From: Psammoneis japonica
Taxonomy: Eukaryota
DNA length: 64,000 nucleotides
Reading direction: 5' to 3'
Assembly (NCBI GenBank): GCA_008632985.1
Contig: QPGO01000012.1
Span: forward strand, 248,001 to 312,000
Each line of letters opens with the position of its first letter. Positions within the stretch are counted from its first letter, which is position 1. Position numbers and translations under genes: made by a program. The notes below the pieces were generated by a model. The model saw only the letters and a program-made list of their open reading frames with translations, made no database searches and was not told the origin of the DNA. This document shows, one piece after another, positions 13,090-62,039 of the stretch.

Positions 13090-15695
13090 GTAGGAACGAA
13101 ACACGTAGCAGATGCGGGCACACACGATAAATCAATGCTCCTTCTAAAAACAGGCATTATTAGAGTTCTGATATTTTATTCTTTTCGTCGTTCGCATGTT
13201 GCTGAGGATGAGTTGTGAGGCTTCGTCCGTTGTTGCTGTACGATCGTGCCCTAGTTCTGTCCCCAGCAAAAATGGTGGCATTTTGACGGTTTCAAACTTT
13301 CAAAAAGAGAAAAAGTGAGACAGCTTTAACGGTTTTTTCCCAAATCGCGTCATCGGAGAAAACGAACAGCAGAACCAAATTCCTCGTATATATTATGAAA
13401 AGGGGGGTAAGACACTGAGGGTTTGTTCGGATGACAGTGTTTGAGGGAGAGATATGATCATTGAAACATGTTCATCCACTAAATTATTTAACGGTTTTTT
13501 CCCCACAAAATGGAGGTGCTCGCTGCTTGTGCCGGTCCTGTGCGCGTGATTGAATCGACTCTGGCGCCGCAACCACGGTTGCAGCGCAGGGTTTTGGCTG
13601 TCTGGGGAGGTTGTTGTCATCAGCATCTTGAAATGGGGAGCTGGCATTTCATCTTCACAAGACAAATCTGGCTCAAGCTTCACCATTCAGTGCTTGTAAA
13701 GGGACAGATCAGTGTTGCCCTCTTTCAGGCCCAAAAAAGCAATCTCACATTGCAGACAATGACAACGTGCCAAGACGCATGGCACATTTCATGATCAACT
13801 TCAATCATGAAATCCATGCAGTCCAGGTCAGTGATTTGTTTTGTGCGGGAGTCCTGCAGAAGTGAACAACAAAAAATCACAGTCATTTTCTGATGCGACG
13901 AGCCTGGGCAGGAACCACAGCACGTTTTCCACTGGTGGGCGGGAATCACAACTCGGAATTCACAGCCCATCACCCAGTCAAGGACCACAAAAAAATCTCA
14001 AAATCATGCTGGGTTGATGCTGGGAGGTGAGTTTTCCAGCTTCCAGGAATCTCACCTGGCACAGTGTGTTTTCTGCTGGCAGGCAGGAATCACAACCCAG
14101 CAGCACCGGGTTGAGAGTCATGGGGAAAAACTGCAGAATCATGCCGGGTCAATGCTTGGAGGTGGCATTTTCCAGCATTCAGGAATCTTGCCCAGAGGTT
14201 CCAAGTCACAGATTGTGACATCACTGCCATCATGCTGAGCATCTGGGCCACACCTGATGGCAGCCCCCCCTCCTCCTGCTCCTTGGATGGAGGTGGCTGC
14301 ACCACAGTGTGACAGCTCTGTCCTTCGCAGCTGCTGGGGATGGCTGAGAGTGCATGTGGCACCACATGCAGTGCCCACTTGCTCCAAAAGGCATGGGCTG
14401 CATGGCAAGGCAGTTTCTGGTTGTTCCTTGTGGTGTGGCACTGACGCAGCTGTCATCCTCTCTGGGGCTGTCTCCTGCTCCAGGGAAAGCTGTGGCGGCC
14501 ATGTGCCAGCCAAGGTGGCACCATCCAAGGGCACCACACATGCCTGCCCCAGTCACCATGCCCCCAATGAGGCCATGGTGCTGGGCAACTGCAGAGGCCG
14601 TGTTGCTGCCCCCCTCTTCCTCTTGTGACTGCTGTTCTTTGGCTGACTCCTGTGAGAGCAGCTGGCTGCTGGCCACCTGTGTGCAGACTTGTGTGGCTCC
14701 AGCTGCAAGGGAGGGCACAACCTTCTCATGCATGGTGAGGGCCCTTGGGTGGGGCTGTTTCATTACCTTGCAAGGCAAAGGGTGATGACACCTCCATGTT
14801 GGTGTCATCGTCTTGATGCAGCGGCCCCACAGAATGGGAAAAACACTGCAGTTGCTCTGCCAGGCACCCCCCTTTTGTTTTGAAGCTCTTTCTTGGGCAG
14901 GTGTGTTGCAGCCATGGCTTGCCAGTGTTTTTGGACCACAAATGGGGAAGAAGATGTGTGGTGGCAAGGATGACACCTGTGGGCCCTTGTTGTCACAGCA
15001 GCAGGCCTGGGCATTGCGTGCAATCAACACCACCATCTGAAATCTGGCCACTGTCCATTGTTCCTTTCACAATGACAAAAAGGCTTGACAATCCTCCTGG
15101 GTCACATTGTCCTTCATGTTGTTGTGGTGGTGGCCACAGTGTGCATGGTCATCATCCAGAAGGGCACAAAAACCAGCAGGGATGACAGCCGCTTCCTCTC
15201 TCCTCTGTTTTGGGATGACGTCATTCTGTGGCTGGGACTTCATTTCCATGATGCAGAACATCCACCCCACAGCAGACAGCAGCTTGCCTGCCATTGCTGG
15301 TTCAGACAACAAGCACCGCTGCAGCATGTTTCTGTTGTGAATTTCTTTTGTGAGCCTGTTTTCTGGCTTCTCTTGGACCAAAAAGAGGATCCTTCAGGTG
15401 CACACGTACAATGTGTGAGGAAGAGAAGGTGTCATTGTTGCTGTTTCTGCCCACCCTTGGAGCCATGAGACCGGCCTCTCATCCCCAAGCCCAGCGAAAA
15501 AAAAAAGGAAAAGAACCATCAGAAGAAGAGAGACAAATGGGATGCCTCCCCATGCAGAACACACGCGAGCCACCTGCCATGCTAGCTAGAATGAGTGATC
15601 CGAATGCAATGGACATGCAATGTAGATGATGACTGTTAGAAACAATGAGGTTATGTAGGCTCACAAAAGTCTGAGGTCTGGTCATCCGCCAACAG

Positions 15696-17008
15696 CTATT
15701 TTCCACAAAAGGCATTGAACAGGGCCACATCCTGGGCATAGACTCTTTCAATTTTGTCCTTGATGGTTTGCGATAGCATCTTCGAGGAGGTGAACTTTTG
15801 CTCGGGCATCCCTGTGTGATGTTCGTATTCGTTGAATATTTCGTCGCTGGGCGGTGGGGGGATGCGCATCCGTTCCAACGTTGAATTGAGGGTGTTGAGA
15901 CATCCCAAATGCGCCACAGGATAACCCAAAAGGAAATCGTATTGCGGAATGATGTGTTCGTTCTTCCCCCCGGTGGCACATCCCTCCCCCCCAAAGCCCC
16001 CGATTTCTTCCATTTGATCCATCCATGCCTCGATGGTATGGACGAAATGCTGTCTCCATTCTTCGACAAAGGCGGTATGGTTCGTGACATTGGTCCGGAA
16101 AGGGGTCGGCGGGGTGACAATTTGACGTTTCCCACACCAAGAGAATTTATTGTGTCGCCCCACCACGGTGGTGTAGGCACTCACCAGACGACTGACCGGT
16201 TCCCGTAGCAGCGAAAAGACTTCGTATTGGTCGCCCGTCGCATTCTTCCCTTCAAAGATGGATCCCATACGAATGATACTGGATTGTCCCTTCCTCCGGT
16301 TGTTGGTAGGATGCATCCGTCCTTTCATCGTACTTGAGCCCGATTTCGGAATGAGTCTTTTTATTGCATTACGAGAAGAAGGAGGCAAGACGACAGCGGG
16401 GAGTGTGAGTCGAAAGAAGAACCAAGCAAAATCATGATGGAATCCACCGTTCTCACGCACAAGTATAGAGGTCGTTTGCTGCCGGTGTTGCTGATGTGGC
16501 TCAGATGACTACTGGGTACGCCGAGGTCATGTCTCCCCACAACATGGGAAAAATTGGATTCATGAAAGAGTTTTAAATAGGCCTCTTGCGCTTGTCGCCG
16601 TTGATCGCCCACCTTTTCCTTATCGTGTGTTGCTTCTGTCCCATTCTTGGCTGTGGCATGGTGAGGCAAAGGGTGGGTTGTATTGCTGCGATTCTTTTTT
16701 GTGTGTGTCTGTTCGAACAAAAAGAAACGTTTGCGTTAGATTTTCATGCGGGAAGGAGGTCTCGGGCGATATTCACAGATGTAAGACCAAAAGCCACCTA
16801 CGGTTTGTGTTTCACCAAAAGTGGTGGCCGTCATTGTGGCTGCGGTCATGTCATAGGCCATATTTATGATCGGAGGAAGAGACATACGAATGGAGGCCGC
16901 CGTTTGCCAACTCGACAGTAACGCCGAAGAGGCCACAAGGCCAATGGGTATCATGATAGATTTGGGACGAGGATGCGTCGTGGCAACGACTTTTGGCTGA
17001 GCAGGCAT
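15696..17008 (-). CDS. Golgi-type sulfotransferase family protein (3 exons: 17008-16802, 16708-16461, 16356-15696; 371 aa)
   Basis: Splicing two GT-AG introns keeps the frame and builds the 5'-PSB motif LLIPKSGSST. 3'-PB motif FSLLREPVSRLVSAY, EHIIPQ and C-terminal IERVYAQDVALF. Weak N-terminal anchor. Confidence 0.82.
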
Positions 17009-17949
17009 ATTATTCTTATCGTCCTTGCCTTTTTTGTTTTTATCAACAGAACAAGGGAGGGTCTAAAGACACGACGAGAGCGAGAGTGTTTTCAAATAAA
17101 TGAGGGCTAATGTACGCCTTCTCATCTTTAGTATGTAACGCTGTATAATAGGTATATAAAAGTCAACATGACACTTTATTTTTATTTTTAAAGTTAAAAC
17201 CCAAAGATGTCCCGGGAATGACCAGAATGACCATAAGACATTATTTTTATGTAGATCTACCGGCATCATTCTTTCAAACTCTCCATGGGCGGGCGAATGG
17301 GCGAAAAAGCGAACCACACTGCTTGTCGGCGTGAAAATGACTCGTGACTGACGGAATGAATTAGTGCCTCCACGCATTCCTGTTAACTGAGGCAAAAAGC
17401 CACCTTTCCCAATGCTTGTTGTTTTTAGAAACCACTTGTGTGTGTGGTGTCATTGCCATCAAAACTCCATCATCCTCGCTGGTGGAGATTTTCTCATCCT
17501 GTGGTGGAAAACACCGCAGAACAGCACCAGAGAAAAGTTCTGAGCCACCCACTCTGAGCCACCCACCCAGTTGTTCGATGAGTGTCAACAGAATCAGCAC
17601 CAGGACTGTGCAGCACTGGCAAACCATGACATGGTTCATGGAAGAGATGTGTGTGGAAATGTGCGTGGAATTTGCGTGCCAGGGGCAAGTGCCAACTGGC
17701 CAGCCGAAAAATGAGGTTCATGACAGTGCGGCAGCAGCACACCACACTTTCAAGAATCAAGTGAGCTTCTGAAGCAAAGTGTGCATTGCACCAAGCAGAC
17801 ATTGCTCCATCTGCTGATGCAAAGTTTGTGCAGCCAGGTGTCTTGTCATTTGCCTGCATTTTCACCCACTGACTCAAAAAGGAAACTGACAATCAAACCA
17901 TTTGTGATGGAACAACAAATGTGAGGAAAGGGGGAAATTAATGTGCTTT

Positions 17950-20260
17950 CTTGGCAAGTTTAAAATGCAGACCAATTGGGCCACACAGCCAACTCAAAAC
18001 AAAAAATGACAACTGACTCATTTGTGACTGGACGCATGAAAAACTTTGCAACCAACAACAGAACAAATTGAAGACAGGTGGATGAAGACAGCACAAATGC
18101 AACGATTTTCTTTGTTGACAAGTTTCATTCTTGATGAGCACCAAAACATGTTACAGACATCATTGCTGAGAACCTGTTTGAACAGGTGGACAATGCTGGT
18201 CATCCTCATTCTGTCTTGGAAGAGATTCAAGGCCATCAAAGCAATGACTCAGCAACTCCCATCTCAGAGGACGATGTCAAGATCAAGACCAAGATTGGAC
18301 AAGAGAGACACAAGGTGACTGCTCAAGGTTGGGAGTTTTTGGTTCAATGGAAGAACAGGTCAACACAATGGGCAAATCTCAAAGATTTGAAAACACAAAA
18401 CCCAATTGAGTTGGCAGAACATGCGGTCGCGAATTGGATGGTTGACAAACCGGCTTTTGCTTGGTGGGTTTCCCAAGCACTGCAAAAGTTTTGAAGGTCA
18501 AGTTAAGGTGTTTTCATGCCACTCACAAGCTTTGGATTAAGCTGCCAAAAAGTGCTGAGGAAGCCCTTCTCAGATTGACAAACAGAGGACGGGGACTGAT
18601 TTTTGGAGGAAGGCTGCTGTCAACAAAGAAATGTCTGAGGTGAAGGCACAGCATGGAATGAAGAAGAAGGTTGCACTCCTCAACAGACAAAAGAATGCAA
18701 GAATTCAAGTGTGGTTGGTTGCCAAGAGATCAAGTGTCATTTGGTGTTCCACGTCAAGATGGATTTCATGAGGAAAGTGCAATTCATGGTGGGAGGTCAC
18801 ATGTGACAGAAGCTCCAGCTGGTGTCACATGTTCAAGTGTTGTTTCAAGAGACAGCACTTGGATTGGTTTGTTGTTGACTGCTTTGAATTTTGTGGATGT
18901 TGCTGCTGTTGACTTGGAAAATGTGCACTTGAGTGCATCGTGTGCCAAAAAGATGTGGTTTTTGAAGACGGTCCTGAATGTGGAGAGAGAACAAAAGCAA
19001 AGTGCTGACTGTTGTGCAAGCATTGCATGGTTTGAAGAGTGCTGGTCATTGTTGGAGGACACATCTTGCTTCAGTTGTTTGAGACTTGGGTTTTCATTTC
19101 ACTGTGACAGACCCAGATTTTTGGATTTGTGCGGCCACATGTCCAGATGGTCATGAGCACTGTGAAGTGCCATTGGTTTTTGCATTGATGATGTCACAAT
19201 TGTGTCACACCAAGGGAAAGCTGTTGTTCAACAATTGAACATGGTTGCAAAGGTCAAACCTGGGAGTGAAGGTGAGCCAGAGTGCCATTTGGGTGCGGGT
19301 GTTGAGAAGATCCAACCAAATGCATGATGGGTGCATCATCATCTGGGGTGGCTCATAAAATTGCACATCAAGAGTGCAATCAACATCATTGTTGAAGATC
19401 TGTCACAAGAGGATGGTCATGGCAAAGAACTCAAGAAGAGTGTGAAGAACCCCTTGTCTTCAAATTGCAGACCTGAGTTGGATGTGGTGACAGACAAGTT
19501 GGGACCAGCTGGAGTGGCACACATCATCTTCAGTTGACTGGAGTTTGTTGTTGTGCAATCAAACTCAGAAGGATTGACATTTTTCATGAAGTGTCCTGTT
19601 TGTCCCATTGTCAAGCAAATCCCAGAGAAAGTCATCTGCAGGTTTTGCATCACATTTTTGCATGTCTCAAGAAGCATCAGGAGCTGGGAAAGATGGGGTG
19701 TGATCCTGGAGCTCTGAAGATTGGCAAGTTTTGACAATGACGTGGGTTGCATTGAGTTTTGTGGTGACGCAGTGGAGGAGTTGCCACCAAAGATGCCCAA
19801 ACCCCATGGAAATCTGGTCAGTGCTGTCCATTGTTTTGTTGAGGCAAATCATGCTGGAAATGTTGTTGCAAGGAGGTCATTGCACAGCAGAATTTTTGAT
19901 TTTGTGCAGAATGTGCGGATCATTTGGTTCAGCGAGAAGCAGAGTGTGGTGCAAAGGAGTTGATTGTGGCATCACAACACAAATTTTGAATGTTTGGTGC
20001 ACCAATTGAAGGTCCTTTGAGTGCATTTTTTGTGATGACAGTGGAGTTGTGAGTTGCAAAGAGAGTGTCAGCATCCCAGATCATGTTTTGCACAAGAAGC
20101 ACAGTGCAACAAACTGTCATGTGGTTCAAGAAGCAGCAGCAGCAGCTGGCATTTTAAGAGTCAAAAAAGAGGATGGAGAAACACATTTGGCAGACATTTC
20201 AATGAAATTGTGACCAGTCAGAAAAGGAGGTGGAACATGTGCTTCAACTTCTTTTGGTGG
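17950..20260 (+). mobile_element. Decayed Ty1/Copia (CoDi-type) pol relic
   Basis: GWEFLVQWKNRSTQWANLKDLK..NPIELAEHAVAN..KPAFAWWV, THKLWIKLPKS, RT EIKCHLVF..GGHVTEAP..SSVVSRDS, RNase H FVEANHAGN..RRS. Multiple stops. Confidence 0.85.
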
Positions 20261-21889
20261 GTCCTGATGCCAAGGTCAGGCACCTCTGGCACATTGCCCA
20301 CATGTTCTCACCTCCGAGACCAAGAAGTGCATCTTGGTGGCCTGTCATGCTGAAGGCTGTTAGCACATTAGACAACCCTGAAAACGAAATGCTGATTTTG
20401 AATTTTTCAGCTCAAAAAACAGTCTGCAACACTGATGGAGCAAAAGCAAAAGCTCACATTATCGAGCTTTGCATGTCAGGCAACTCTCAATGGATTGCTG
20501 TTGTGCCAAAGGCTGTTGGCACATTGGACAACCCCAAAAACAGTGTTCTCACCTCCCAGACCAAGTGCATCTTGGCAGCTTTAACTTGGGTGTGTGTGTG
20601 TTTGACTTCCTGGAAAGAAGGACATTTTGAGATTTGATTGTTCAACTTGGTGCCTTGCATTGGCTTGCAGAGACCAAGCAAATTGTGATGATCTGGCTGA
20701 CTGTCAGCAATCTTACATTTTAGAGAGAGTCTGTCTTGTGTCCATCACATGCCAAGAGGTGTCATGGGGTTGCTCTTTGTGTCATCTTTTTTCAGCCACA
20801 AGAATTCAGAATTTGCAATTGTGGTGACTGCAGTTGATTGTTCTTGCTGCTTTCCAGGTTTGTTGGTCCACTGGAAGATGAGCCCACAGCTGAATTTATT
20901 TGCTTTCACTCATGTGCCTTGTTTTGTTTGTGTCAACAAAGCCAGACATTGGCTGCAAACAGTGGAGGGAATGTGACAAGGTTTCTGTCATTGTTCTTGC
21001 AAGAAGAAGCAGCATTGAGATCCAAAATGTTTGACAGTGGTGGCTGACAAAATGCTGCAAATGAATGGCCTTGAGCTGTGCAGCATTGATCTTTTTTGAA
21101 TCAGAAAAGAGTTGAAGTGTGAAGTGGGTTGGAGTTGCCCCCCCCTTGAGAATTTCCACACTGACACAGAGAGAGAAAAAAATTGTCTCTTGTGGTGGCT
21201 CCAAAATGGCAGCAAGTCTTGCTCACATTGAAAGTTGTTCTTGGGGTGAGTGTGGAGAGGAGCTGAACTTGCATGGTTGAGTCTTTGAAGACACTCAGAG
21301 AGGCCGGTGTCTTGTTTGCAACATTCTTGTGGGTTTAAGAGTTTGTCAGGCTGAGCCAAGCATTTCAGCAATGCAGCCAGAAGACAGAACAAAAAGGCAG
21401 TGCGTGACTCACCTTTGTCAACAACAGTGCAGGAAGTGACAACACAGGGAGGCAAAAGCATTGGTTGATGAATTTTCTGAAGAAAAGCAAAAAAACCAGC
21501 AATGCCCTCTGGCCTGGCCTGTTGTTGGGCACCCCACATCACAAACTCTTGGGTGTGTGATCCTCAACAGTGTTTGCTGTGGTGTGCTCCTCACAAGAAA
21601 ATCAAAGACACATCATTTGACTCAGCACAAAGAGGAGGGGTGCCAAGAGACTGGCAAAGTGGAAGTCTGCTTTGGCAGCACATTGTTCACTGGGCCTTCT
21701 TCTGCTCAATTGAAGGCAATGGTGCACAACCAAACCTTAAAAAATGGGTTTGCTCATGAGTTGCTCAAAGGAGTGCCAGACAAACTGAAGAAGAGCCAAG
21801 ATCCATTTTGGCCCAATCAAGGGAAGTCTGAAAGAACACTTGGTTCCAAGTTTTGTGGCTCTGGCACTGGTCATGAAAGTCAAGATGGT

Positions 21890-22300
21890 TCAAAGCCCAT
21901 GTCTTTTGCCAAAGGAGCAGCCCCTGAGGTCACTCTTAATGACTTTGAAGCAGCTGAGCCAGTTGGGTGTGGTTGTTGTGGAGTGGTGTTTGGAGGTGAG
22001 TGGAGCAGGGAAGTCATTGTGCTCAAACTCTTTGATGCTCACAACAAGAGAGCAGAAGAAGGGACTCATTTGAGCAAGAGATGAGAGGGCTGACAAGCCC
22101 TTGAAAAAGGCACAGGGTTGGCTTGCTGTGATGCTAAAGCTTGTCACTGCAGCTTCTGTCATGATCTGTTTTGGAGTGCAAACGGCTGAGCTAGTGCAAA
22201 CGGCTGAGCTGCCCCTGCAAAGTGCTCTTCTCTTGAAGATTGGGGTGCAGAGTCGTGTTGTGAGAGCCACAGAGGAAGCAGCTTGCAGTTTTTGTCATTT
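21890..22300 (+). pseudogene. Protein kinase-like gene fragment
   Basis: VTLNDFEAAEPVGCGCCGVVFGGEWSREVIVLKLFD resembles kinase subdomains I-II (GxGxxG, VxxK). Partial second copy at ~37235-37460. Confidence 0.55.
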
Positions 22301-22334
22301 GGGTGTTGACATGGCTGCTTTTTGTGTGTGCTTG

Positions 22335-23000
22335 ATGTCATCATTGCAGAAACATCATGTTGTTTGGCAACTCAAGCAGAGTGGGCCTTGCCAATGTGAT
22401 CTCATCAAGGCTGCAGAGAAGAAAGTTGGTTGGAAGAAGCCTTCACACACAAGTGCCCTGACATTGAGTGTCTCAGGCACATGGTGGAAAGCAAGCATGC
22501 TCACCACCAGGGTGAAAGATTGTCAATCCATTCAAGCAGCCATGTTGGGGTGCAGCGAACCACCTGTGAGAGGGCACCAGAACATTTTTTTGCCTTGGCT
22601 TTGCATGAACAAAACATGTTGGAGATTGAGGAACAACTGCGGGCAAGAGCCCCAATTTGTGACAAGAGATTGAAGTGAGAGTCAAATTGTCAATTGTTCA
22701 TGATGGTGCACCTCTGCTGTTTCATGACAAGGGCATGCTGCAAAGCCCTTGGAAAGCATCACAACCTGTGAGTGCAGCAGAAAAACAGATGATGCAGAGA
22801 CACCACCTGCCCAGTCACTGCTCCTTCTAAAAACAGGCACTGGAGAGAGAGAGTTCTTGTTTCATGCCACTCATCATTTGTGCATGTTGCTGATGATGAG
22901 TTGTGAGGCTTCGTCCATTGCAACTGTGGTTCTGTCCCCAGCAAATGGTTGCAACAAAAGGAAGAATTCGGTGGCTTTGACGGTTTCAAAATTTCAAAAA
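22335..23000 (+). pseudogene. Decayed copy of the 3' end and downstream flank of the LarA-like gene (source ~12690-13305)
   Basis: Colinear matches such as gggccttgccaatgtgat, attcaagcagcc, gacaagagattgaag, caaagcccttggaaa, ctccttctaaaaacaggca, gatgagttgtgaggcttcgtcc and ttgacggtttcaaa. Confidence 0.9.
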
Positions 23001-23099
23001 CTCCAGGTGCAAACAATTATAACATGCTATCATGTGTGGATACATTTTATGATCGACGTCAATCACGAAAGCACGCGACACTATTATAGAATTACCGTA

Positions 23100-24510
23100 C
23101 GTGTATGTACTGTACAGTGGACAGTGGCCACAAAAAATGCGTGTGCCGGAAGTTGTTGCAACTCGTCTCCGGCAAACTAATCATTTGCGTTGTGTAGACC
23201 GCAGCAGCTGGGACAAATGGAGATATCAAGCACGTTCTCCGCTAGATAAGCAAACATGATGTGTCGTCGCTTCAAAGCCATGGGCAGGCTGTTTTGAGGG
23301 TCGCCAAACTTAACATTCTGTATTTTTTCCAGGTGAGTTGGCTGCCACGCGAAAATGGTGTCAAGCAATGAATCGATACCATCCTGCTTTGGATCAATTC
23401 CAAGTGCTACGAGCTGTTGGAGATCTTCGAAATATCCCTTCCGTGCATGACTTGGTGTTGCACAGTCCTTAGAAGGGTACCGACGGTACAACAAACTGGT
23501 CTGCCCGCTCCTCGCTGCTCTTACGTGCTCATCGTTCCGTACGTAGAATGGGCGGCCGCTAACCTTACCACTCCGAACAATTATTTCGTCGTTGATGTCT
23601 TTGTAAAGGTAAGCCCCTTCTCTTACTCTCATAATTGCACTGATGGCAATTGCATAATAAATCTCATTCGCAACTAACAAAATTTTGTCTTCAGTCATGC
23701 AAGACAGATCTCTCTTCACTAGTCGCTTCAGACACATGATCGCAGCCATACGAGCAAGGTTGGATGAGGTAAAATCCTATACCCAATGAGGCTTGTTCTT
23801 TGCACGTCGCTTGATGTGGGAGGCAAGGTGAGTGTGAAGTAGTTTTTGTAGGAGGTCTGCCTGATTCTTGACTTGCTCTGTAATTTCTGAAACAAACATC
23901 TCGCCCTCACACACGAATGCCGTTTGTACCGCTGTTACCCAGCATGAATCGCCGATTGTATTGTTCCGTTGTAGGATCCTTCCGACATGTCGCTAGCATT
24001 CGTTTGAAATCAGGATAGTTGAAGCAAGACTCGTCAATCATCCCATTCTCGACGAATCCGTGACGAATGCCATTCACGGTACACGCCCTTGCCATAAGTT
24101 GAGGGGTGCATGCGACTTGGTCGATGAGCGCAGCTCTTTTGGTTGGAGGTAAGTTCAGCACTCTCTTTCTTGTTAGAAGATCAAATTTGCGACTAATGGC
24201 TCGCTTTAGTGGACTCAATTCTTCAGGTACATTGGTAAGATTGAGTTTGCGACGCTTGCAAGAAGGCAACAGCGACTCTCTGCCAAATGGTGTTAGCTCC
24301 ATTTTGCTGCAAAAGTGTGGCATTGTCGGAGCGGAAGCTGTCGCAAATTCTGGTCGTTGAAGCGACCGACTGTCGATTCAAATCATTGTGTCAAGACTGA
24401 AATTCAAAAATTTCCAAGACTTTGAAAACGACGACATGCGCGTGCGCGATCCGGACTTTTTTGGCATTCCAGTCTTTTGCGCGGTAAGTACTGTACAGTA
24501 CTGTACTGGT
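23100..24510 (-). mobile_element. Possible DNA transposon remnant or fragmented gene (ORFs 23907-24323 and 23177-23749)
   Basis: Broken ORFs with normal composition, bounded at both ends by the palindromic GTACTGTACAGT. Begins just where homology to 37690-37780 stops. No catalytic DDE motif recognised. Confidence 0.35.
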
Positions 24511-24934: not shown

Positions 24935-27049
24935 ATGAAAATCAGTTGCAAGGGTGTTTCTCTCCTACTTGCTATTGCTCTTTGCGATGCTGCTGGTACG
25001 TGGCGTTGCTGCACAGCAAATCGGCTTGGGCGACAGAGCCATTTCGATGAGACAAGACCGGCTAACAAATTTGCATCTTTTTATCCTTTATTCTTCCTCA
25101 GACCTGATGACGAAGCCGGGACTTAGGGATGGTGCTTCTCAAAAGGTAAGCAACAACACCGTCTCCGTGGTGTTCATTCCCTTTCGTGGGCCGTTCTGAC
25201 GACTTCTGCTCGTTTGATGAAAACTTTCACCTCTATTCTCGAAGGACATCGTCAACCCTAATGCTGAAGCCGGGTCCGACAGGTTCCTCGCTGTAAGTGA
25301 AAAAAGGATTTCATGTCGTTTAGTTGAACAAACTTCTTCAAAACATCCGAATCGCTCAAAATGTCTTTCAGTATTACTTTCCTAGTGAGGGGGCGTGCTG
25401 TGAAACTAAACGTGGTCGACCTAAATGTACGGTCACACAGCAACGCGATTGTCAAGGTCGCGGCGGCCACTACGTTGGAGACGGAAGCAGCTGCAGACCT
25501 AACAAGTGTGCATCCGTCCCACGTCCCACGCCACCGACTACGCCGAGTCCTCCGACACCGACGTTTGGTGGAAAGGAGGGAGCATGCTGCTTGAGGTTCC
25601 GGTAGGTCTTGTCTTGGTGAATGAGAATCCCTGTCTCTTTGTTTTAACCTCAACGCTTTGCCACCTTGCTTTGTACAAATCGCATTTTGTATTTACAGGG
25701 ATCGATGCTTTGTTGCTTCAGAAGACATATGCACGTTTAAGAACGGAATTTACCACGGGGACGGCACGGTAAGACTCGTCGCTATTGTGAGCACAGAATG
25801 AACATGTGTGAGTAGATCTTGCGATAACCAATTTCATTCTTTCCTATCGTTTTCAGACCTGCATTTCCGGTGGCTGTAGGACCAGGGGAGCATGTTGCTT
25901 GGATTCTGGTGAATGCCTCCCTTTTGAAAAGCAAAACACGTGCCAAAGGGCGCTCGGTGGCATCTTCCAAGGAGTCGGCACAACTTGTCAAGATGGAGTG
26001 TGCCGTGTTACCCCTCCTTCTGGTCCTGGTACTCCGCCGTCTGGTCCTGGTATGCCTCCGTCTGGACCTGGTACTCCTCCTTCTGGTCCTGGTACTCCGC
26101 CGTCCGGTCCTGGAACTCCGCCGTCCGGTCCTGGTACTCCTCCGTCTGGTCCTGGAACTCCCCCTTCTGGCCCGGGTACTCCTCCTTCACCCACGCCGCC
26201 CTCTCCGCAAGAGGGAGCTTGCTGCTTGCCCTTTGGAAACAGGAATTGCGATGTTTTTTCCGAAAAAGACTGCACTCGTCAGGGTGGAGCATACCTCGGA
26301 GACGGAAAGACGTGCGCAAATACAAGATGCCCAAGGCAAGGAGTCTGCTGTCGTGACAATGGCACTTGTGGCAGGACAACATTGTCTGGATGCGATAATG
26401 GAGTCTTTCAGGGTCGCGGTAGTGAATGCGAAGATGAGAATGGCTTAACTATTTGTCAAACGCCGGCTCCCACTCCGTCTCCCACACCTGCTCCCACCCC
26501 GTCTCCCACACCTGCTCCTACGCCTTCTCCCACGGCTGCTCCTACACCTACTCCGACGGGAGCATGCTGTGTGCCATTCGGACGGAACACATGTGAAATT
26601 CTCTCCAGTGCGGACTGCGCTCTTGAAGGAGGAGTATACCAAGGCGTGGAGCTTGCTGCCTTGAAGATGGCAATTGCTTCTTGAGCCCCTTGGCTGGTTG
26701 CAACAATGGCAAAGTCTTTCAGGGTCGTGGCACTGAATGCCAAGACGGCACCGGTGCACCTGTGTGTCCGGCGGGCCCACCCACGGTTGAAGTGGGCCGC
26801 TGCTGCCTTCCCAACGGCGATTGTGATGTAACCACCCCCGCAGAATGCAATGATCAGTTTGGTGTGTATCAGGGAGCCGGCACTAGATGTGGTGGTGCAG
26901 ATGATCGCTGCAGTGAGGAAGGAAGTTGCTGTGTGGGTTTCAAACCGTTCTGCATTGACGTCAATGTTGCGGTTTGCAAGAAGAAGCGCGGTGACTTCCA
27001 GGAAGATACCGTTTGCTTTGACACCCGTTGGTGTCCCGGTGAGGCCTAG
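24935..27049 (+). CDS. Secreted Cys-rich GACC-repeat protein with Pro/Thr/Ser linkers (exons 24935-24995, 25102-25145, 25245-25292, 25372-25601, 25699-25768, 25857-27049), frame break at ~26648
   Basis: Signal peptide MKISCKGVSLLLAIALCDA. Five GT-AG introns that keep the frame. Nine ~40-aa units GACC-x-C-x-C-GGxY/FxGxGxxC-x-C. Confidence 0.85.
26010..26189 (+). repeat. Coding 21-bp tandem repeat, (T)PPSGPG x8
   Basis: act ccN ccN tcN ggN ccN ggN units. A second PTPAPTPS 24-bp array lies at ~26459-26556. Confidence 0.9.
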
Positions 27050-28479
27050 TCTCGGAGACGCCAAGTGACCGTGATCGTAATTCGTAATACGAGTGTTTGT
27101 TTTAGCGAGGACATGATGTGAATCTCAAGCCAGTGATTGTCACCATGATGCCTCTGTATAATCGCACCAGTCCGAGTCCCTCCGCAAGAAGAAGATGAAG
27201 AAGTAAACGGGGCTTGGATCCAATTAAAAAAAAAATAGTGTCCATGTTTTGTGAATGTTGCGCAAGTAGCAGGTGCACCGTAGCAGTTTCATCGCCTCAA
27301 CTGTTTCACTGGTGCTAACGTTTCCTTTGACACCTCCAACAATCCTCTCACGACCACATGATGATGCAAATTCAAGGCACCAGAATAATTGTTCCAACTG
27401 TCTTCAAAGTCATCATGAACGGCCGCCATCCACAAGGTTTTGGTCGCAGATCAATCTGGGATGTTGTTTCTGGTGTCTGAGACAGCGCCATGGCGATTGG
27501 TGATTGATGTTTGAAAGAGGGACTTGGATGATCATGAGGATTCCAGATTGCTCACATTTTTCCCCATTGTTGTCATCACAAGAATAGAACACAATGTTGC
27601 CCCATTGTCAACTGCTTCTCATCTTTGCTGCCTCTCAGGGCAATGATTTGCATCAGTTTGCCCTGGACAAACGTGCTTTCAACAATTTGCAAAGGCTGTT
27701 GACAGTCAGTTGCCCCATCTGTGGCATGGATGCACCCGGGGATTGTGGTCCCCTTGCAAACCTCAACACCACCTGCTTCCCCAGAGGTGAAGCACAAGTT
27801 GATGTGGGCTGGTGCAAGTCAACGATGGCATCATTTGCAGCAGTGAGAAGTTGACACTCACACAAATCTTTGCACACAGGAGACATCCAGACTTGTGACC
27901 TGTGCCAAAATGGAAGATGGGCAGTGGGAAGTGCACAAAGGTGAGCAGCAACAGCACATGAGACAAGCTCATAAGAAACACAAGACATGCAAAAATCTGA
28001 TCACTTGTGTGAACTTTTCTCATCATGGAGAGAGCAAGAGTGGGAACAAGGAGAGAGCAAGAGTGGTTGCAAGAAGGGAGGACACAAGGACTAAAGCAGG
28101 ACACCCATTGTGCAAGGACTGTGAAGGATGACAGGAACTGGTGCAATGCAGCAGGAGACAAACAAGGGCGGGAAGAAGGGAGCATTTTTTAGTGTTTGGT
28201 GCAGAAATGACAAAGCAGAACATTTGCAAATCAGATGACAAGCAGCACACAGCCAATGTGCAATCAGATCAACAAGACAATTGAACATGTCATTGTTGTC
28301 AGAAATGAACAATGTCAGAAAGTTGTTGCATGGAAATGGTTGCTGAGAGATGGAAACAAATGCAAGTGACAAGTTTCATCAACTGTTGTTTCCCTGTGAA
28401 CAGAATCAAAAATGATGTTGAAACAAGCAGACATGAGAAATTGTCAAGAATGTGTGCACAATGAGGCTGATTTGCATTG

Positions 28480-30150
28480 ACTGTCAATTTACACAGACTG
28501 TTAAATCCTGCTTGGAAGGTTGACATGATTGTTAAATTTCCCATTCCCTTTGTCAGTGATTGACAAGCACTTGTCAAGAACACAAAATTCTGAACAAGAG
28601 CATGTGAGTTCTGAACAAGAGCCACAACATTTTCCAGATGCAGCATTGTTGTTGTTGTTGGGGGGGTGTTGGATGACCAACTCCCAAACCCGCAACTCTC
28701 TTGTTTTCATCTTGGATTGCTAGAAATGAAAGGACCAAGATTGTGCAATTGAGAATCTTCTGGGAATTTAAGAGGGAGCAATGGCAAAGATTGCCCATGA
28801 TGCAAAATGTTTTGCAAAAGGATGCCCTGGCAAGCATGACATTTTCCTTGAAAACCCAAGAAATGACAGAAAATGGATGACCCCAACTGCACCAACTTTG
28901 ACAGGCTTTTGCCATTGTTCAAGGCCATCAGGAAGGCAAAGCAGAGTGGGTTGTTGTGGCAAGAACAATGCCACAGCAATGCTGACATCATTGCAGATGA
29001 CAGGCATTTGTGTGCAAACAACATTGCAGCAATGCAAATGATGCATTCCATGGTGCACTCAGAGTCAATCAGGAATCTTTTGTTGACTTCCACTGCACAC
29101 CCAAACAGAACCTGATCAAGAACTTGCACTGCAATGGTCTGCACTGGGGTGCTGATGCCATCAGTGTGTTTCCTCTTGGGACCAACTTGTGTGCCATGTT
29201 GTTCCAATTGGGTCAGACAACCAGCCACTTTACAGTCAATCCATGCTTGCAAGCCAAGTGCAAAGCACAGTTCACAATTTTTGTCAATGCATTTTGGGCA
29301 CCTTCTTCAGTTGCATCTAGAAGCACAAAGATCATGGCATGACCAAATTTGCAAATCGTGCTCATGGGATGTGCCCTCAACATTTGACTCATTGTCGGCA
29401 TCAGAAAGAGGTGTGAGAGTGTGCATCATTCATCCAATTTGCCCAACTGCAAACAGTGTCTGACACAAGGCTTGGTGCCTGCATCCCAAAAAGTGGACAA
29501 TTCTGTCTCAAGTAAATCCACAACAAGTGTGCACATTGAACACCAGCCACCCAGTCTTCCAACACAGAAGCTGCTTCTTTCTGCTGTCTTTGTGGTTGCT
29601 GTCATGTTTTGGGTCATCATTTTTATCCTCCACAACATTCATCACCAAATTGCATGATGGCACATGGACATCTGACTCTTCTTTGCTGGCTTGTGCTGCA
29701 CAACCGCTCTCATGATTCAACTTTCTTTCACCCCAACCTGCCTTGGAGCACAGTCTGACATTCTTGTGCAAACCGTCACGTGGTTCACATGCTTTGCCAC
29801 AGTTGAGAAATTCCAGAAATGCTTCATTGCATTCAAAGGTTGGAAAGCATGTGTGGTCTCCAACAAACTTCTCCAAGGAGCCACCAGGCCTTGGATCATT
29901 GCAAGAGAGAATCACACCTGTTGCCTTTGCCTTTAAACTCTTGACAGCTTGCCTCTCATGGGTCTTTTTCACCATGTCTGATTTTTCAAGCACAGTTTGG
30001 AGCTTGCTGCCCTGGATCTCTGCCACCAAAGCTTCTGCCTCCTTTGTTCTCACCAGCATGCTCTCAAGCTTTGCCTTCAGGAGCATGAGCTCCTCCTTCA
30101 AACTCTTGTGTGCTCTTCCACATCTGCACTCAATGCCTGACATTTTGTGC
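28480..30150 (-). mobile_element. Decayed PIF/Harbinger or ISL2EU-like transposase relic (tentative)
   Basis: Coiled coil followed by HTCFPTFECNEAFLEFLN, LCWKTGWLVFNVH, LDATE and KHGLTVKWLV, reminiscent of the DDE_Tnp_4 layout. Heavily mutated. Confidence 0.45.
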
Positions 30151-30325
30151 TTGATTGTTGGTGTTTGTCATCTTGAGATTGCTGGCATGACACCGCAGCA
30201 TGTGCCACACTCTGCTGGCTGGTGTTGGTGTTGACAGGTTTGGATGGTCTCTCCTTTGTGTGGCTGCTGCCACACTGGAAACCCAGACCAGCAATCAGTG
30301 TCTTTCCTGTCCATCAACCAACAAG

Positions 30326-30864
30326 CCACTGAAACAGAAAATTTTGTGAATCACAAACAAATTTGTGGAGACAAATGGATCGAATTTTTTCATGATGAAA
30401 GCACGTGCGAGGTCTCTGAGTGCTTCATTTTTTGCTTCAAATGAGCAAATGCTGCTGTTTTGACAACCGCAGGTCTGCAAGTGACGTGAAACAACAAACC
30501 AATTGGATTGTTGTCATTGTGAAGAGCCACACGATGTTTTGTTTGTGAGGAAAGGTGGTGCAATCATCCAAAAAGAAGGTCATTTTTGTTGAAATCTTGC
30601 GATGCATCGGCATGAGTTGCTGTCATGAGAAGGTGATTTCCTTTGGAAACAAGGATTTCTTGTCATTTCTTGTGCATCATGTCTTTTCTCAATGAAAGTA
30701 GAAAGAATGCCTGCACCTTGAATTGCACCAGAGGATGTTGGCCATGTTGCAAAGATGATCTTGGAGGGTGACAAGGGTCATTTCTTGACCTGGCGTGCGA
30801 AGATTGTGCGGGGATTAGGAATTTGTTGCAAATTTTGCATGTCGCAATTTTTTCGATTCAGCAG
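30326..30864. mobile_element. MITE family B copy 2, inverted relative to 7443-7964
   Basis: Full-length reverse-complement similarity (e.g. catgatgaaagcacgtgcgag, gtttgtgaggaaaggtggtgcaatcatccaaaa). TSD CAAG (30322-30325, 30865-30868). Confidence 0.82.
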
Positions 30865-32082
30865 CAAGCATGCCAACCACAGCCATGAATGATGCAGAGT
30901 CCATCATGGTTTTGACAAACTGCCAGGTGAGTCCAACTTTTTCTGCCTGCACCCTTGCAAGTGGATGCTGTGAATGATGCCAAGTCCAGTGCACTGTCAG
31001 AGATGCCAAGAGCTTCTCTGCCAGTTCTGCCCAAGACCCAACCAAGCCAAAGTCAACAGTGCTCATTGCTTTCAGTGAGAAGTGCAGTTGTCTTGTGCAA
31101 GATTCACTCAACAGGACTGCAGCAACCATGGCTTGCTCTTTGTCTCCATCACAAGAAGTGCTGTTTGATGTGCTGCAGCAGAAATTCAGACATCGAATTC
31201 AGTCAAATTTCTGGTTGTTGCCCAGTCTGTCCACACCCAGGCCAAAATCTTGAAAAGAAAAAAGGTCTGTGTTCCCATTCTTGAGCTGCTGCTGCAGACA
31301 GTGCAGCTGGCCAATGTTGAACTTCTGTTGCCACTCTTGAACTGGACAATCATGTTCTCAATGCCAGCCACATCAGACATGTGCAGCACACAATTTTGCA
31401 GCCCATTTGTGGGTTGGAAATCCAACATGATCTTTTGCCACATCTTGCCAAATCAGATGCCATGTTTGTCACACGTTCTGCCAACATGCTGCTGAAACCA
31501 AAATCAGCTGCGCTTCCTGTGCACTGCCCCAGTTGGATTTTCATTTTGCCATCACTGCCCTTTGATGCTTTTGCTCTTTTGCCTTCACAGATTGTGCACC
31601 AGTCAATGAGCAGTGCAGAGTTGCATTGGATGAAAGCAGTGGAAGCAGCACACCTCAGACTGTTGCTGATGAAGCCATGCCAACTGTGTTTCCATTGGCT
31701 CTGCCGCTGTTTCCTGTTGATGTTGGACAAGGTGCAACAAGAGGCTGCACGTTCATGGTTGTGCTCAGGTGACAGCAGCATCGTCATCTCTAAACGTGCC
31801 GCCATGGTCAACACAATTCCCACGGGTGGCGCCAAAAGTGTGATGCCTGGCATTAATTTCACACATCTCTCTACCGTTTGTTCATCGCATCCTGGATCGG
31901 GCTGGAGGTGGTGCCAGGTACGGGCAGACGGCCACTGCGATTCTTGCGGCGCTGCTGCTGCGTGTGGCGACAACCAATCCTTGAGCTGTTCTCAGACATT
32001 TTTTCTGTCACTGAATACGGTGCTGAACAATAATAAGAGGAAAGTATTATTTCAGTCTACCTAAAGAGCGAGAGCTGTCAAG

Positions 32083-35000
32083 TCAACCCAACAAGGTGCA
32101 TCTTCCACTACCGGATGCGTCCCAAAAAAGGCAGTCACCGGTAGGAGATCGGTCCGTGTTACCTTCAAATATTTGTTGGGTCTCATCAAACTCGAACGAG
32201 CCAGAACTATACCATCCCACAGCTCCATACTACACCCGGAAATAAAAAAAACACTGCATGAGACAACACACCTGATCAGATAAAATTCGGAGTCATGGTA
32301 CGTTTACTTACACCACGAGAACCCGTGACGCTATTGTTCGTGAAGCTGTTTCCAGCGAGGAGATCGACTCGCCCAAGCTCAACAATAATGGCACCACCCC
32401 CGTTTTCTGCCGAGTTGCCCAAGAACGTACTCTGTGAGATTTCAACTCTGGTTGTAAAATATTGAGCACCAAGAGCAGCAGCCCCGGTTGCCGTATTTCT
32501 CTCGAATAGGGTATTTCTGATTGAAATACGAGCATACCCCCCGCCATTGGACTTGCCTTGAGCAGCAATGGCGCCTCCGTAGAGCTGTGTAACGATTGCG
32601 CAAGAAAGCACGATGGGAAAAGAGTCAACACAGCAAAGCAACGTGCAAGGCAAACTAAAATGAAAAGCAGTGCTGTGACAGCAATGTCATTCTTGTAGGT
32701 CATACACGTACCGCGTGGTTATTTCTGAACACGCAGTCCTCGACAGACATTGTTGTACTCCTCGGATCGCCCCGCACAAAAATAGCCCCTCCATTTCTAC
32801 TTGCATGGCTGTTGTCGAATTCAAGTCCAACAAACGTAAGGTTGCCAAAGTAAAAATTAAAGATACCCCCGTCGTCCTCTGCAACGCGTCCGGCATCGGC
32901 ATTGCCATCAAGGACGCACCGACGCTCAGGATAATCTTCATTTGCACACTTAATCGTCAACTCCCTCGCTGAAATGCCGACACTTCCGTCACCATTATTG
33001 AACAGGATAACGCCAGGGCACAAATTCAATAGAGTCTCATTATTTGATTTCGTTGTTGCAATGGCATCAGCCAACTGATCTCGCGTTTCGACATGTTGGC
33101 ATTCAGGAGCTCCACTTGGCTGCAAAGAAAGCCAGGGAGCATTTGAAGGATACAAACTCGGACGAGAAGAAATTGAGGGAGCATGTGAAGGCTGTGAAGT
33201 GGGTCGAGAAGAAAGCGAGGGAGCAAATGAAGGCTGTGAACTCGGTCGAGAAGACATTGAGGGGGCGCTTGAAGGCTCCAGACTCGGTTGAGAAGATTTT
33301 GAGGGAGCACTTGAAGGCTGTAAACTCGGTTGCCAAGAAATTGAGGGACGTGATGTTGAATGATCTGAGCCCTCTCCATCACATTCCGGATAAAAAAGAC
33401 TGGAATGACCTTTGCTTTGCAGTCACCTGATTCAGAACAGTCTATATCAATCGGTTTCTTCAATACCACCTCCACTCTGTCAGTGGATTTATCAACAACA
33501 TACTCTTGAATAGTTCCACCAACGCGTTCATCGCACCGGAGTGCCGTGGCGCCACTAAATAAACAGATATCAACGGCGTCGTCCTCAGAAAACTCGGATA
33601 GATCAATCGTAGCTGTCGTTGTGTCGCTACAGCCACGTGTGGGACTAAAGGAGGCACAGCACTGCCCCTCGCTACAAATGAGAGGCCCAGGAGTCTCCAG
33701 TGAAGCTTCTGGGTCGACCAGTTCGACAAAGTATCCGTTGGTCTTGAGGACCTTGTAGTATTGAATTGCTTGTCCTTGATTGGGCAAGGTACGGACTACC
33801 GAACTCCCCATCAAGACTCTTACGCCGGAGGATTCTTGTGAGTCGGTCATAATAATCACGAGTGTCGCCACCAGGGCTTGATTTGAAACAGAACATGTTT
33901 CTTTTCCAGCCATGCATTCAACTCCCTCGATCTCAAGTGAAGCTGCATAGTCAATCACTTTCACCTTGTAAACTCCCTTGAGAACTGTAGCTTGAACAAA
34001 TGGCTTGTTACCTTGGTTTGACAGCGTGCGGATGAGTTTGTCTCCGGAGAACAACTGAATATCAGTCGTGTCAGGAAGTCCAGTGGTGTCAACAGAGAGA
34101 GTCTGACAAAATCTGTGGATGCTACCGAGCAGCCAGCCCCGGCCACGGAGCAGATGACATCATTGATTTCCCACGTGGCCGCGTTGTCGATCACCTTTAC
34201 TTTGTATACTCCCCTGAGCACATTAACCTGAACATTCGCCTTGTTTCCTTGGTTTGATAGAGTGCGGACGAGCTTTTCTCCAGAGAACAACTGAATATCT
34301 ACGGAGCTAGGGAGCCCGGTGGTGTCAATTGAGAGAGTCTGACGAAGGTCTGTGGATGCTACGGAGCAGCCAGTCCCGACCACGGAGCAGTCTACTCCTT
34401 CGATTTCAAGTGAGGAGGCCTTGTCAATCACTTTCACCTTGTATTCTCCCTTGAGAACGACAGATTCAACGGATGGCTTGTTACCTTGATTTGATAGAGT
34501 ACGGACGAGCTTTTCTCCGGAGAACAGCTGTATGTCTACCGAGCTAGGAAGTCCAGTGGTATCAATAGAGAGTGTCTGCACAATGTCCAAGGATGATACG
34601 GAGCAGCCAGGTCCTGCAACTAAGCAGTCTACTCCCTCGATTTCGATCGAGGTGGCTTTGTCGATCACTTTCACCTTGTATTCTCCTTTGAGAACGACGG
34701 CTCGTACGGATGACTTGTTTCCTTGGTTCAGTAGAGTGCGGACAAGTTTTTCTCCAGAGAACAGCTGTATGTCAACCGAACTAGGAAGTCCAGTGGTATC
34801 AATAGAGAGTGTCTGCACAAGATCCGTAGACGATACATTGCAGCCATTCCCTGCCACGGAGCAGGCGACCTGGTTGACTTGCCACGTGGCGGCATTGTCG
34901 ATCACCTGTACCTTGTACACGCCCTTGAGAACAACGGCTGGTACGGATGAAATGTTTCCTTGGTTTAATAGAGTGCGAACGAGATCGCCTCTAGAAAACA

Positions 35001-62000: not shown

Positions 62001-62039
62001 TGACCAGCTGAGCTGCGTGGCTCATGACACCTTCTGGGT

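Follow-up and report, generated by a model that had tools for sequence, protein, structure and literature searches.

A dead copy of a LarA-family gene fragment in the diatom Psammoneis japonica, and the probable position-targeted loss of TpA from the domain in which it lies

Introduction

Hypermutation that is specific for TpA, directed towards GC and confined to particular regions has been reported once before, in a 2026 preprint on the chlorarachniophyte Bigelowiella natans (Mettrop et al., bioRxiv 10.64898/2026.01.13.699255). According to the text of that preprint, 230 of 231 hypermutations of integrated nucleocytoplasmic large DNA virus (NCLDV) and virophage sequences in mutation-accumulation lines were A→G or T→C changes at TpA, with a rate of about 6e-7 per site per generation and in part of the lines only. 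The ~95-Mb genome is described there as containing 124 TpA-poor, CpA+TpG-rich clusters in which reverse-transcriptase and endonuclease domains are enriched, and an ADAT2-like DNA adenine deaminase is proposed (Mettrop et al.). The preprint was the only match in the literature on TpA, CpG, hypermutation, repeat-induced point mutation (RIP) and deaminases in diatoms and algae, and the literature on N6-methyladenine in diatoms yielded nothing about TpA. Here we describe a window of 64,000 bases (64 kb) from the diatom Psammoneis japonica (contig QPGO01000012.1), in which the 3′ end of a LarA-family gene, the source gene, is accompanied by a dead duplicate, copy 2, that has lost TpA and CpG in favour of TpG and CpA. 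Copy 2 forms the end of one of 13 domains of the same composition, and the pattern is probably the work of a position-targeted process that changes TpA to TpG or CpA at the DNA level in silenced, largely transposon-derived domains, accompanied by a slower decay of CpG.

Several better known processes also leave dinucleotide footprints and have to be compared with this one. In fungal RIP, C is changed to T mostly at CpA, which creates TpA, and both members of a duplication are mutated. The APOBEC3 enzymes, which act on retroelements, and ADAR, which acts on double-stranded RNA, have RNA or single-stranded DNA as their substrate while replication takes place, and the changes that they leave show single-strand polarity. 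Loss of CpG alone is ordinary for methylated transposons. Accounts of RIP are found in PMC7296669 and PMC2621366, and in the diatom Phaeodactylum tricornutum transposons are described as bearing H3K9me2/3, H3K27me3 and DNA methylation (PMC4504042).

Materials and methods

All in-window counts given below are limited to the 64-kb window. Duplicates were found by self-BLAST of the window, and the fates of dinucleotides were read from a three-way alignment (columns 41-735). Domains were called from profiles of observed/expected dinucleotide frequency (O/E), Pfam was run on 24 long open reading frames (ORFs) and on 121 domain ORFs, and polarity was judged with 60 homologous proteins of the source gene. 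For comparison with B. natans, 1-kb windows with TpA Rho <= 0.43 and CpA+TpG Rho >= 1.52 were counted, a cluster being at least three consecutive windows. A public sequencing run that is independent of the window assembly, X1 (word depth about 47-65), was compared with the window, its differences being those among the rows listed.

Results

A dead copy of the 3′ end of the source gene

The source gene and its duplicates are as follows.

11708-13089, plus strand: source gene, LarA-family nickel-pincer-cofactor isomerase (group 22, DUF2088 type), matched by NCBIfam NF052515
12679-13306, plus strand: duplicated part of the source locus, consisting of the last 411 coding bases (~137 codons) and a 217-base 3′ flank, unmutated by self-BLAST and O/E
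22325-23000, plus strand: copy 2, dead and hypermutated (TA O/E 0.02, CG 0.14, TG 1.86, CA 1.87)
37470-37700, plus strand: copy 3, derived from copy 2 but shorter and lacking part of its interior, from self-BLAST and alignment

By self-BLAST, 12679-13306 and 22325-23000 are 72.2% identical over 684 columns (E 3.9e-88), and in purine/pyrimidine (RY) code the match widens to 12658-13331 against 22302-23024, with 84.3% identity. A self-comparison of the RY-recoded window gave no further homology above shuffled-control noise (102 bits) beyond the pairs already known. The first-pass annotation, made from the letters alone, had described 22335-23000 as a dead, hypermutated gene copy, and this is borne out by eight insertions (of 2, 2, 3, 3, 4, 16, 5 and 1 bases), by a CGA→TGA stop and by the composition of copy 2, which has a single TA (O/E 0.02) and five CG (0.14) where the matching source stretch has 22 TA (0.46) and 27 CG (0.87). 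The asymmetry between source and copy on which that annotation was built is thus present in TpA O/E (0.46 versus 0.02), and the five pairs of source and copy strings that it quoted are all found in the sequence.

The three-way alignment of source, copy 2 and copy 3 that it had proposed shows what became of the individual sites. Of 21 source TpA, 11 are TG in copy 2, five are CA, one is still TA and four are something else, giving 16/21 as TG or CA. The change had been put as one from TA to TG/CA, which holds for TpA but is too narrow, as CpG has been lost likewise: the 26 source CpG appear in copy 2 as CA (10), TG (7), CG (3) or other dinucleotides (6), so that 17/26 are TG or CA. Over 631 aligned sites the two sequences differ by 94 transitions and 75 transversions, and the latter (~11%) imply that copy 2 is old. 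The comparison also contains eight TG<->CA doublets, together with TT→CA and GG→CA paths.

The direction of the change was read from the codons. Source and copy 2 differ in 70 codons, 21 of them synonymously, and at the 49 non-synonymous differences the 60 homologues side with the source residue in 38 cases and with the copy residue in six, with five ties. Two of these differences involve TpA, a TAC (Y, found in 55/60 homologues) that has become CAC (H, found in none) and a TTA (L, 24/59) that has become CAA (Q, none). Judged by these homologues, the ancestral state lies in the source and the derived state in copy 2, and the polarity from TA to TG/CA that had been proposed is upheld (source 38/49, copy 6/49). 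The synonymous TA of the source, about which the first-pass annotation had asked, are kept, 11 of the 12 TA in the duplicated coding part lying in codon phases 2-3 or 3-1.

Copy 3 adds little to this comparison. Its segment 37470-37611 is 89.7% identical to copy 2 and 75% identical to the source, and it carries the derived transversions and indels of copy 2; it therefore stems from an already mutated ancestor and is no independent witness. A contig of X1 with the junction 22192→22714 matches the architecture of copy 3. Source, copy 2 and copy 3 agree fully over a stretch of about 21-24 bases of the 3′ flank (13133-13156, 22815-22838 and 37574-37597) that includes CTAAAAAC. The one TA left in copy 2 belongs to this stretch, which may be conserved as a signal, such as one for the formation of 3′ ends, or may simply offer a resistant YTAR context.

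The source gene

The N-terminal part of the source protein matches NF052515 with 299.7 bits (E 3e-89, profile positions 3-257 of 392) and the C-terminal part with 128.2 bits (E 4e-37, positions 256-391 of 392); each alone is below the full-profile cutoff of 400 bits, and a bacterial homologue (P0004) scores 446. The two parts lie in ORFs of different frames, 11585-12670 and 12556-13089, the frame being broken near 12571-12574 in a T4 run that lacks one base and at which the homologues are uninterrupted (...DVLV[IV]xQ[IL]GK[NK]ISG). Because the 177 codons past the break are stop-free and keep the invariant residues, the break must be either a very recent shift (an allele) or a homopolymer or assembly error. 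One contig of X1 begins at 12570, just before the T4 run. The source gene had been called intact, and this stands for the 177 downstream codons, which are open and conserved, but has to be qualified by the one-base frame break in the assembly and by a mild deficit in TpA. Its TpA O/E is 0.34, versus 0.50 for ten other genes taken together (Poisson P 0.015), and it has both the lowest TpA O/E and the highest TG/CA among the genes of the window.

The source protein has 1403 homologues at E <= 0.001 in a library of 1.8 billion proteins. The nearest are 63% identical, and those with names are DUF2088 proteins of Chloroflexota/Anaerolineae, so the gene is possibly one of bacterial type that entered the diatom by an old horizontal transfer. 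In X1 the source gene has other bases than in the window at 12712-12713 (TT→CC) and at 12720 (A→C, the C being the state of copy 2 too), and the gene is therefore polymorphic between the window and X1. A second run, X2, the kind of which was guessed as 'DNA?', has contigs over the source gene at 11718-12322 and 12716-13154.

Thirteen depleted domains

The state of copy 2 is that of its surroundings. The dinucleotide profile gives 13 depleted domains that add up to 23,530 of the 64,000 bases, with O/E values inside them of 0.05 for TpA (76-77 sites), 0.17 for CpG, 1.80 for TG and 1.84 for CA, and values outside of 0.51, 0.97, 1.22 and 1.21, respectively. The GC content is almost the same in both compartments (0.475 versus 0.482) because the losses of TpA and CpG nearly cancel. 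The domains referred to in this paper are these.

17391-23020: domain of 5.6 kb with copy 2 as its 3′ end (the last 676 bases); 22 TA (O/E 0.05), 37 CG (0.13), TG 1.73, CA 1.89
13571-15560: domain just 3′ of the source gene; three TA (O/E 0.03), CG 0.18
27421-31820: domain with TA O/E 0.05 and CG 0.16, in which 30329-30864 is a paralogue of 7443-7961
59661-63990: domain with TA 0.04 and CG 0.10
6101-8880: two domains, 6101-7520 and 7891-8880, with TA 0.03-0.05 and CG 0.17-0.20
36781-37710: domain holding copy 3; TA 0.08, CG 0.21
2002-2714, plus strand: decayed remnant of a non-long-terminal-repeat retrotransposon (long interspersed nuclear element, LINE) inside a depleted domain, from Pfam

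When the B. natans thresholds are applied, 26 of the 64 1-kb windows qualify, and they form four clusters, at 5001-9000, 18001-23000, 27001-32000 and 60001-64000. The confinement to domains is sharp, as the density of TA falls from one per ~10 bases to zero within about 100 bases. At the edges inspected, which lie near 13490-13585, 17260-17375, 22910-23020, 37650-37715 and 59556-59660, the TA-free span is 50-100 bases wider than the CG-free span, which points to two processes that differ in their reach or their rate.

The depletion is not what unconstrained DNA of this genome comes to by itself. The DNA outside the domains that is not in ORFs (10,217 bases in 23 segments) has a TpA O/E of 0.65 and a CpG O/E of 1.07, and the ORFs have 0.51 and 0.99; since the non-ORF DNA exceeds the ORFs in both, the loss is not the neutral fate of the genome. 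The 14 segments from which a range was taken vary between 0.45 and 0.97 for TpA and between 0.75 and 1.42 for CpG, compared with 0-0.10 and 0.10-0.38 inside the domains. The first-pass annotation had offered removal of hits from the source by selection as one explanation of the asymmetry, and as the main cause it fails, the 3′ flank of the source and 10.2 kb of non-ORF DNA having retained TpA (0.65) and CpG (1.07).

Little of the original content of the domains is recognisable. The LINE remnant matches Exo_endo_phos at 2002-2430 (E 2.2e-5, 24.7 bits, cutoff 24.5) and RVT_1 at 2139-2714 (E 0.01, 16 bits, below the cutoff of 29.6), and of the 121 domain ORFs 117 are without a Pfam match and two match other families, but weakly and below threshold. 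In X1, pieces of the 17.4-23.0-kb domain recur 2-5 times at >=90% identity. Long ORFs without meaning arise in the domains because TAA and TAG need a TA, which leaves TGA as the sole stop; such spurious ORFs without a family match reach 278 amino acids, two examples being 14233-15066 (minus strand) and 61141-61971 (plus strand). Contigs of X1 (word depth about 47-64) cover 17207-23200, where they are 98.4-99.7% identical to the window and agree with it in the TG/CA states, and as these independent contigs reproduce the sequence of the domain, the TG/CA pattern is not an assembly artefact of the window. The coverage of 16974-23200 by X2 is a trace at 20102-20492 alone, which was not used as a sign of a silent copy.

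Position rather than repetition

A natural control is provided by the DNA that follows the gene fragment. The duplicated unit runs past 13306, and at the source locus an insert of 445 bases sets apart a further ~80 bases of it, here called flank F, which at copies 2 and 3 directly abut the gene fragment.

13736-13817, plus strand: flank F at the source locus, inside a depleted domain; no TA, two CG, six TG, 15 CA
22992-23077, plus strand: flank F beside copy 2, just outside the domain and unmutated; five TA, five CG
37692-37779, plus strand: flank F beside copy 3, just outside the domain and unmutated; eight TA, five CG
13307-13750: insert between the duplicated unit and flank F at the source locus, holding a high-copy element of ~168 bases

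One duplicated unit thus shows opposite patterns, the gene part being mutated in the copies only and flank F at the source only. Because the pattern of flank F reverses that of the gene part, it is position that decides and not the identity of the copy or repetition. Flank F is no known RNA gene, since Rfam and tRNA scans of the window gave no matches.

Repetition is not sufficient either, and the process is independent of it. The element of ~168 bases in the insert (13326/13335-13503), which lies between 16-base direct repeats and looks like a high-copy element of the miniature inverted-repeat transposable element (MITE) type, has a depth in X1 of 579/425 as compared with ~50 (8-10 times single-copy), with loose contig ends at 13335 and 13503, and it has retained TA and CG. 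An inverted repeat of 390 bases with 97.4% identity (1054-1443 / 4237-4624) keeps 25 of its 26-27 TA. That this repeat and the high-copy element at 13335-13503 are unmutated shows that being repeated is not enough, and the non-coding 3′ flank of the source (13090-13306), which is within the duplicated unit, likewise retains TA and CG. The first-pass annotation had argued that targeting follows the state of the place instead of a symmetric pairing of duplicates, and the reversal at flank F, the unmutated repeats and the spared non-coding source flank all agree with it. The arms of the inverted repeat, normal in TA and CG, flank the domain with the LINE remnant.

Resolution in place on both strands

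If each copy resolves an ancestral TA or CG on its own, or if new TA and CG are resolved again as by a ratchet, TG<->CA doublets are expected between paralogues. Among adjacent double differences such doublets account for 11/28, 5/9, 5/6 and 1/9 in four pairs of in-domain paralogues, and for none in the unmutated inverted repeat. Between X1 and the window, the 22 in-domain differences among those listed include three CA→TG doublets (18158/9, 18183/4 and 19387/8), and CG/CA, CG/TG, TA/TG, CA/CG and TG/CG differences are also among them. These differences from X1 are a sign that the process has been active recently. The doublet differences, both between paralogues and between the window and X1, show that the sites are resolved at the DNA level, in place, on both strands and after duplication.

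Along copy 2, 18 hits on the plus strand and 15 on the minus strand are interleaved in 13 runs, and a test of these strand runs for processive single-strand events was not significant (P 0.086). Because hits on the two strands interleave, a single-strand event on RNA or cDNA does not fit. The speed of the TpA component is seen in a younger pair of paralogues, 7443-7961 and 30329-30864 (20 transversions over 515 sites), where each member has only 1-2 TA left and one still has 22 CG, and from this the loss of TpA outpaces that of CpG.

Sequence context of the TpA loss

The 76-77 TA that survive in the domains differ in context from the 1390 TA outside. TTAA is enriched 6.1-fold among the survivors, CTAA/TTAG 3.6-fold and CTAG 1.5-fold, whereas ATAT is absent and ATAC/GTAT and CTAC/GTAG are at 0.09. 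Expressed per kb, the depletion is 50-fold for RTAY, about 18-fold for YTAY/RTAR and 2.7-fold for YTAR, and the difference between YTAR and RTAY among survivors versus outside is highly significant (Fisher P 1.5e-17, or P 2e-16 with margins of 150 bases trimmed). The dependence of the TpA loss on context is enzyme-like, and the depletion of CpG is almost free of context (ratios 0.14-0.21). For TpA the context effects are roughly additive and fit a target A that would be read as T-A-Y or, equivalently, as R-T-A on the other strand, and the product classes lean weakly to T-A-Y (YTGY 1.76 versus YCAY 1.45, RCAR 1.49 versus RTGR 1.32). In nature TadA/ADAT2 acts on A34 of the anticodon loop, which follows U33 (UAC in tRNA-Arg), and such a substrate would fit T-A-Y.

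Discussion

A proposed process and its rivals

We think it likely that events at this locus took the following course. A non-functional duplicate of the 3′ end of the LarA-family gene would have come to lie in a domain that is under position-targeted mutation, and the gene fragment would have been mutated because of where it landed. There the adenine of TpA, on either strand, would be changed to G, giving TpG or CpA, almost to exhaustion, and CpG would go to TpG or CpA at a lower pace and within slightly narrower limits, most likely by deamination of methylated cytosine in silenced DNA. All pyrimidine-purine steps would thereby end as TG or CA, and fresh TA or CG supplied by ordinary mutation would be resolved again, causing the TG<->CA flips. 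Targeting would be by location, probably through repressive chromatin over transposon-derived, untranscribed DNA, with the expressed source gene spared, and the agent may be an adenine deaminase, ADAT2/TadA-like or other. Since the losses of TpA and CpG go together in the same domains, targeting may use the signal by which methylation or heterochromatin is directed.

This course has to be weighed against several others. The coincidence of the two losses in 13/13 domains would be explained if a single deaminase or repair pathway, for example of the ADAT2/3 type, converted both the A of TpA and the C of CpG on silenced DNA, and amphioxus ADAT2 is stated to edit A and C in DNA and trypanosome ADAT2 to deaminate C (cited in 10.64898/2026.01.13.699255). 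A single agent is nevertheless unlikely, given that the rates differ (in 7443-7961 TA is gone and 22 CG are left), that the TA-free edges are 50-100 bases wider, that the context range is 2.7- to 50-fold for TpA versus ratios of 0.14-0.21 for CpG, that the mutated base is the 3′ one in TpA and the 5′ one in CpG, and that in the text of the B. natans preprint 230/231 changes are at TpA and a CpG component is unreported. A homology-dependent defence of the RIP type, in which duplication would trigger mutation of both copies and purifying selection would clear the source, is suggested by the fact that the mutated stretch is a duplicate, by the repeated pieces that the domains have in common and by the mild TpA deficit of the source. 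It would have to explain why the non-coding 3′ flank of the source (13090-13306) retains TA and CG, why the asymmetry is reversed at flank F, why the inverted repeat of 97.4% identity and the high-copy element have stayed unmutated, why synonymous source TA are retained (11/12) and why TpA is destroyed rather than made, the opposite direction, and we consider it very improbable. We place about as little faith in an explanation without any targeting, by which TpA and CpG would be the most mutable steps genome-wide, the domains old unconstrained DNA and the rest constrained or young; the age of copy 2 (~11% transversions) and the under-representation of TpA outside the domains too (0.51) speak for it, but the distribution is bimodal and not graded, the edges are sharp, and the younger pair 7443-7961 / 30329-30864 is already down to 1-2 TA each.

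Even less probable is an origin at the RNA level, by which a transcript would have undergone ADAR-like A-to-I hyperediting and then been reverse-transcribed and inserted. ADARs are, to our knowledge, a metazoan family, the strands are interleaved in copy 2 (at its TpA sites 11 TG and five CA; runs test P 0.086), the TG/CA doublets differ between paralogues and from X1, which places the resolution after insertion, and the domain edges cut across the duplicated unit; these points outweigh the 5′ U/T preference, which suits ADAR-type editing (10.64898/2026.01.13.699255, in the text), and the retrotransposon remnant in one domain. An artefact, by which modified bases would have been miscalled systematically in a long-read assembly, is the explanation to which we give the least credence. 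Transitions at methylated motifs are an error mode of long reads and would be its source, but the X1 contigs show the same TG/CA states across 17207-23200 at 98.4-99.7% identity, copy 2 also has 75 transversions and eight indels, and paralogues differ in their choice of TG or CA.

Some observations count against the position-targeted process that we favour. The evidence comes from a single 64-kb window, and hypermutation is read from a footprint in the sequence and not from a mutation rate. Copy 2 is old (~11% transversions), and a slow biased process could in principle have saturated its TpA sites over a long time. Flank F is short (81-88 bases, with three shared TA and four shared CG sites) and alone is modest evidence. 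The source gene is not fully exempt (TpA O/E 0.34 versus 0.50), a deficit that its bacterial ancestry could explain. A recognisable transposon domain is found in just one of the 13 domains, one target is a host-gene fragment, and the targeting signal, whether methylation, chromatin or transcription of the domains, is something that we infer. The choice between TG and CA at 10 informative source sites matches neither strand-specific reading of the context (5/10 each). The X1 comparison concerns the differences among the rows listed, with 60 further rows beyond these, and the platform of X1 is without record. Finally, 58 diatom-like metagenome loci, divided into 947 windows of 500 bases, contain no window with the signature, compared with 94 of 255 here, although those loci (258,580 bases around relatives of the TLC gene of the window) are a weak sample, as their contigs favour unique, gene-rich DNA; the signature is therefore either not a general diatom feature, being restricted to a lineage, or missed by metagenome assembly.

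Comparison with described systems

The process proposed for P. japonica agrees with that in B. natans, as the latter is set out in the text of the preprint, in the change of TpA to TpG or CpA on both strands, in its regional confinement, in its TpA-poor, CpA+TpG-rich footprint and in the fact that repetition is not the trigger, as DNA present in one copy can be a target. The hosts are different, a chlorarachniophyte, which is a rhizarian, in one case and a diatom, which is a stramenopile, in the other. The footprint is denser here (26/64 1-kb windows versus 124 clusters in ~95 Mb) and deeper (TpA O/E 0.05 versus a Rho of 0.45 for the B. natans NCLDV region). CpG is co-depleted here (17/26 sites; O/E 0.17), whereas 'CpG' does not occur in the text of the preprint and the spectrum given there is almost exclusively AT→GC, and the preference for RTAY over YTAR found here concerns the flanking bases, which are not discussed in that text. 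The host-gene fragment and its flank serve as an internal control that the B. natans study, by its text, does not have; on the other hand, B. natans offers a measured de novo rate and P. japonica a sequence footprint.

Other systems are less similar. What is shared with RIP is a hypermutation by transitions that resembles a genome defence, degrades DNA of transposon origin and can be recognised by its dinucleotide footprint, but here TpA is destroyed and not created (O/E 0.05), one duplicate is spared, repeats can stay unmutated and position decides. The first-pass annotation had likewise set the case apart from RIP, on the ground that the source gene is spared. The conversion of CpG to TpG and CpA on both strands to an O/E of 0.10-0.38 in transposon-like domains is what the decay of 5-methylcytosine (5mC) would produce, and the deeper and wider loss of TpA is left unexplained by methylation. 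Restriction by APOBEC3 or ADAR has in common with it the context-specific, deamination-type transitions on selfish or foreign nucleic acid and, for ADAR, the 5′ T/U before the edited A; it differs in that here both strands of resident chromosomal DNA are changed in place, in fixed domains.

If a diatom bears a saturated footprint of this chemistry, the process would not be confined to one species. The duplicated unit, which straddles domain edges in opposite ways, is a natural experiment on position versus repetition versus selection, and the strong preference of RTAY over YTAR is a context rule that candidate enzymes have to reproduce. It is conceivable, though we hold it only tentatively, that diatoms or this lineage have an active hypermutation of TpA adenines that is targeted to chromatin domains, prefers RTAY and is joined with 5mC decay into a ratchet, and that a position-based defence of this kind extends across the stramenopiles, alveolates and rhizarians (SAR). 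If so, it would be homologous to or convergent with the chlorarachniophyte process, and it can erase more than one third of a gene-bearing region to the point where nothing is recognisable. In practical terms, such domains are unrecognisable to homology-based annotation of transposons, gene finders may accept their spurious ORFs, and estimates of repeat age could be misled by them.

Other features of the window

Further gene matches in the window are to TFIIS, bromodomain, DnaJ-X, TLC and DUF6824. The best named relatives of the TLC protein are from diatoms, at <=66% identity (Fragilaria crotonensis, Cylindrotheca closterium, Nitzschia inconspicua, Epithemia and MMETSP diatom transcriptomes). 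On the minus strand there is a gene of the sulfotransferase family, in which an X2 contig omits 104 and 93 bases with GT..AG ends at 16356-16461 and 16708-16802, in the manner of a spliced transcript, and these are probably two introns of that gene. The region 33900-35300 consists of tandem repeats (offsets of ~236 and ~470 bases, 72-75% identity) within a long minus-strand ORF and is unmutated; the ORF has weak matches to the PPC pre-peptidase C-terminal domain and, by these matches, looks like a gene for a repeat-domain secreted protein.

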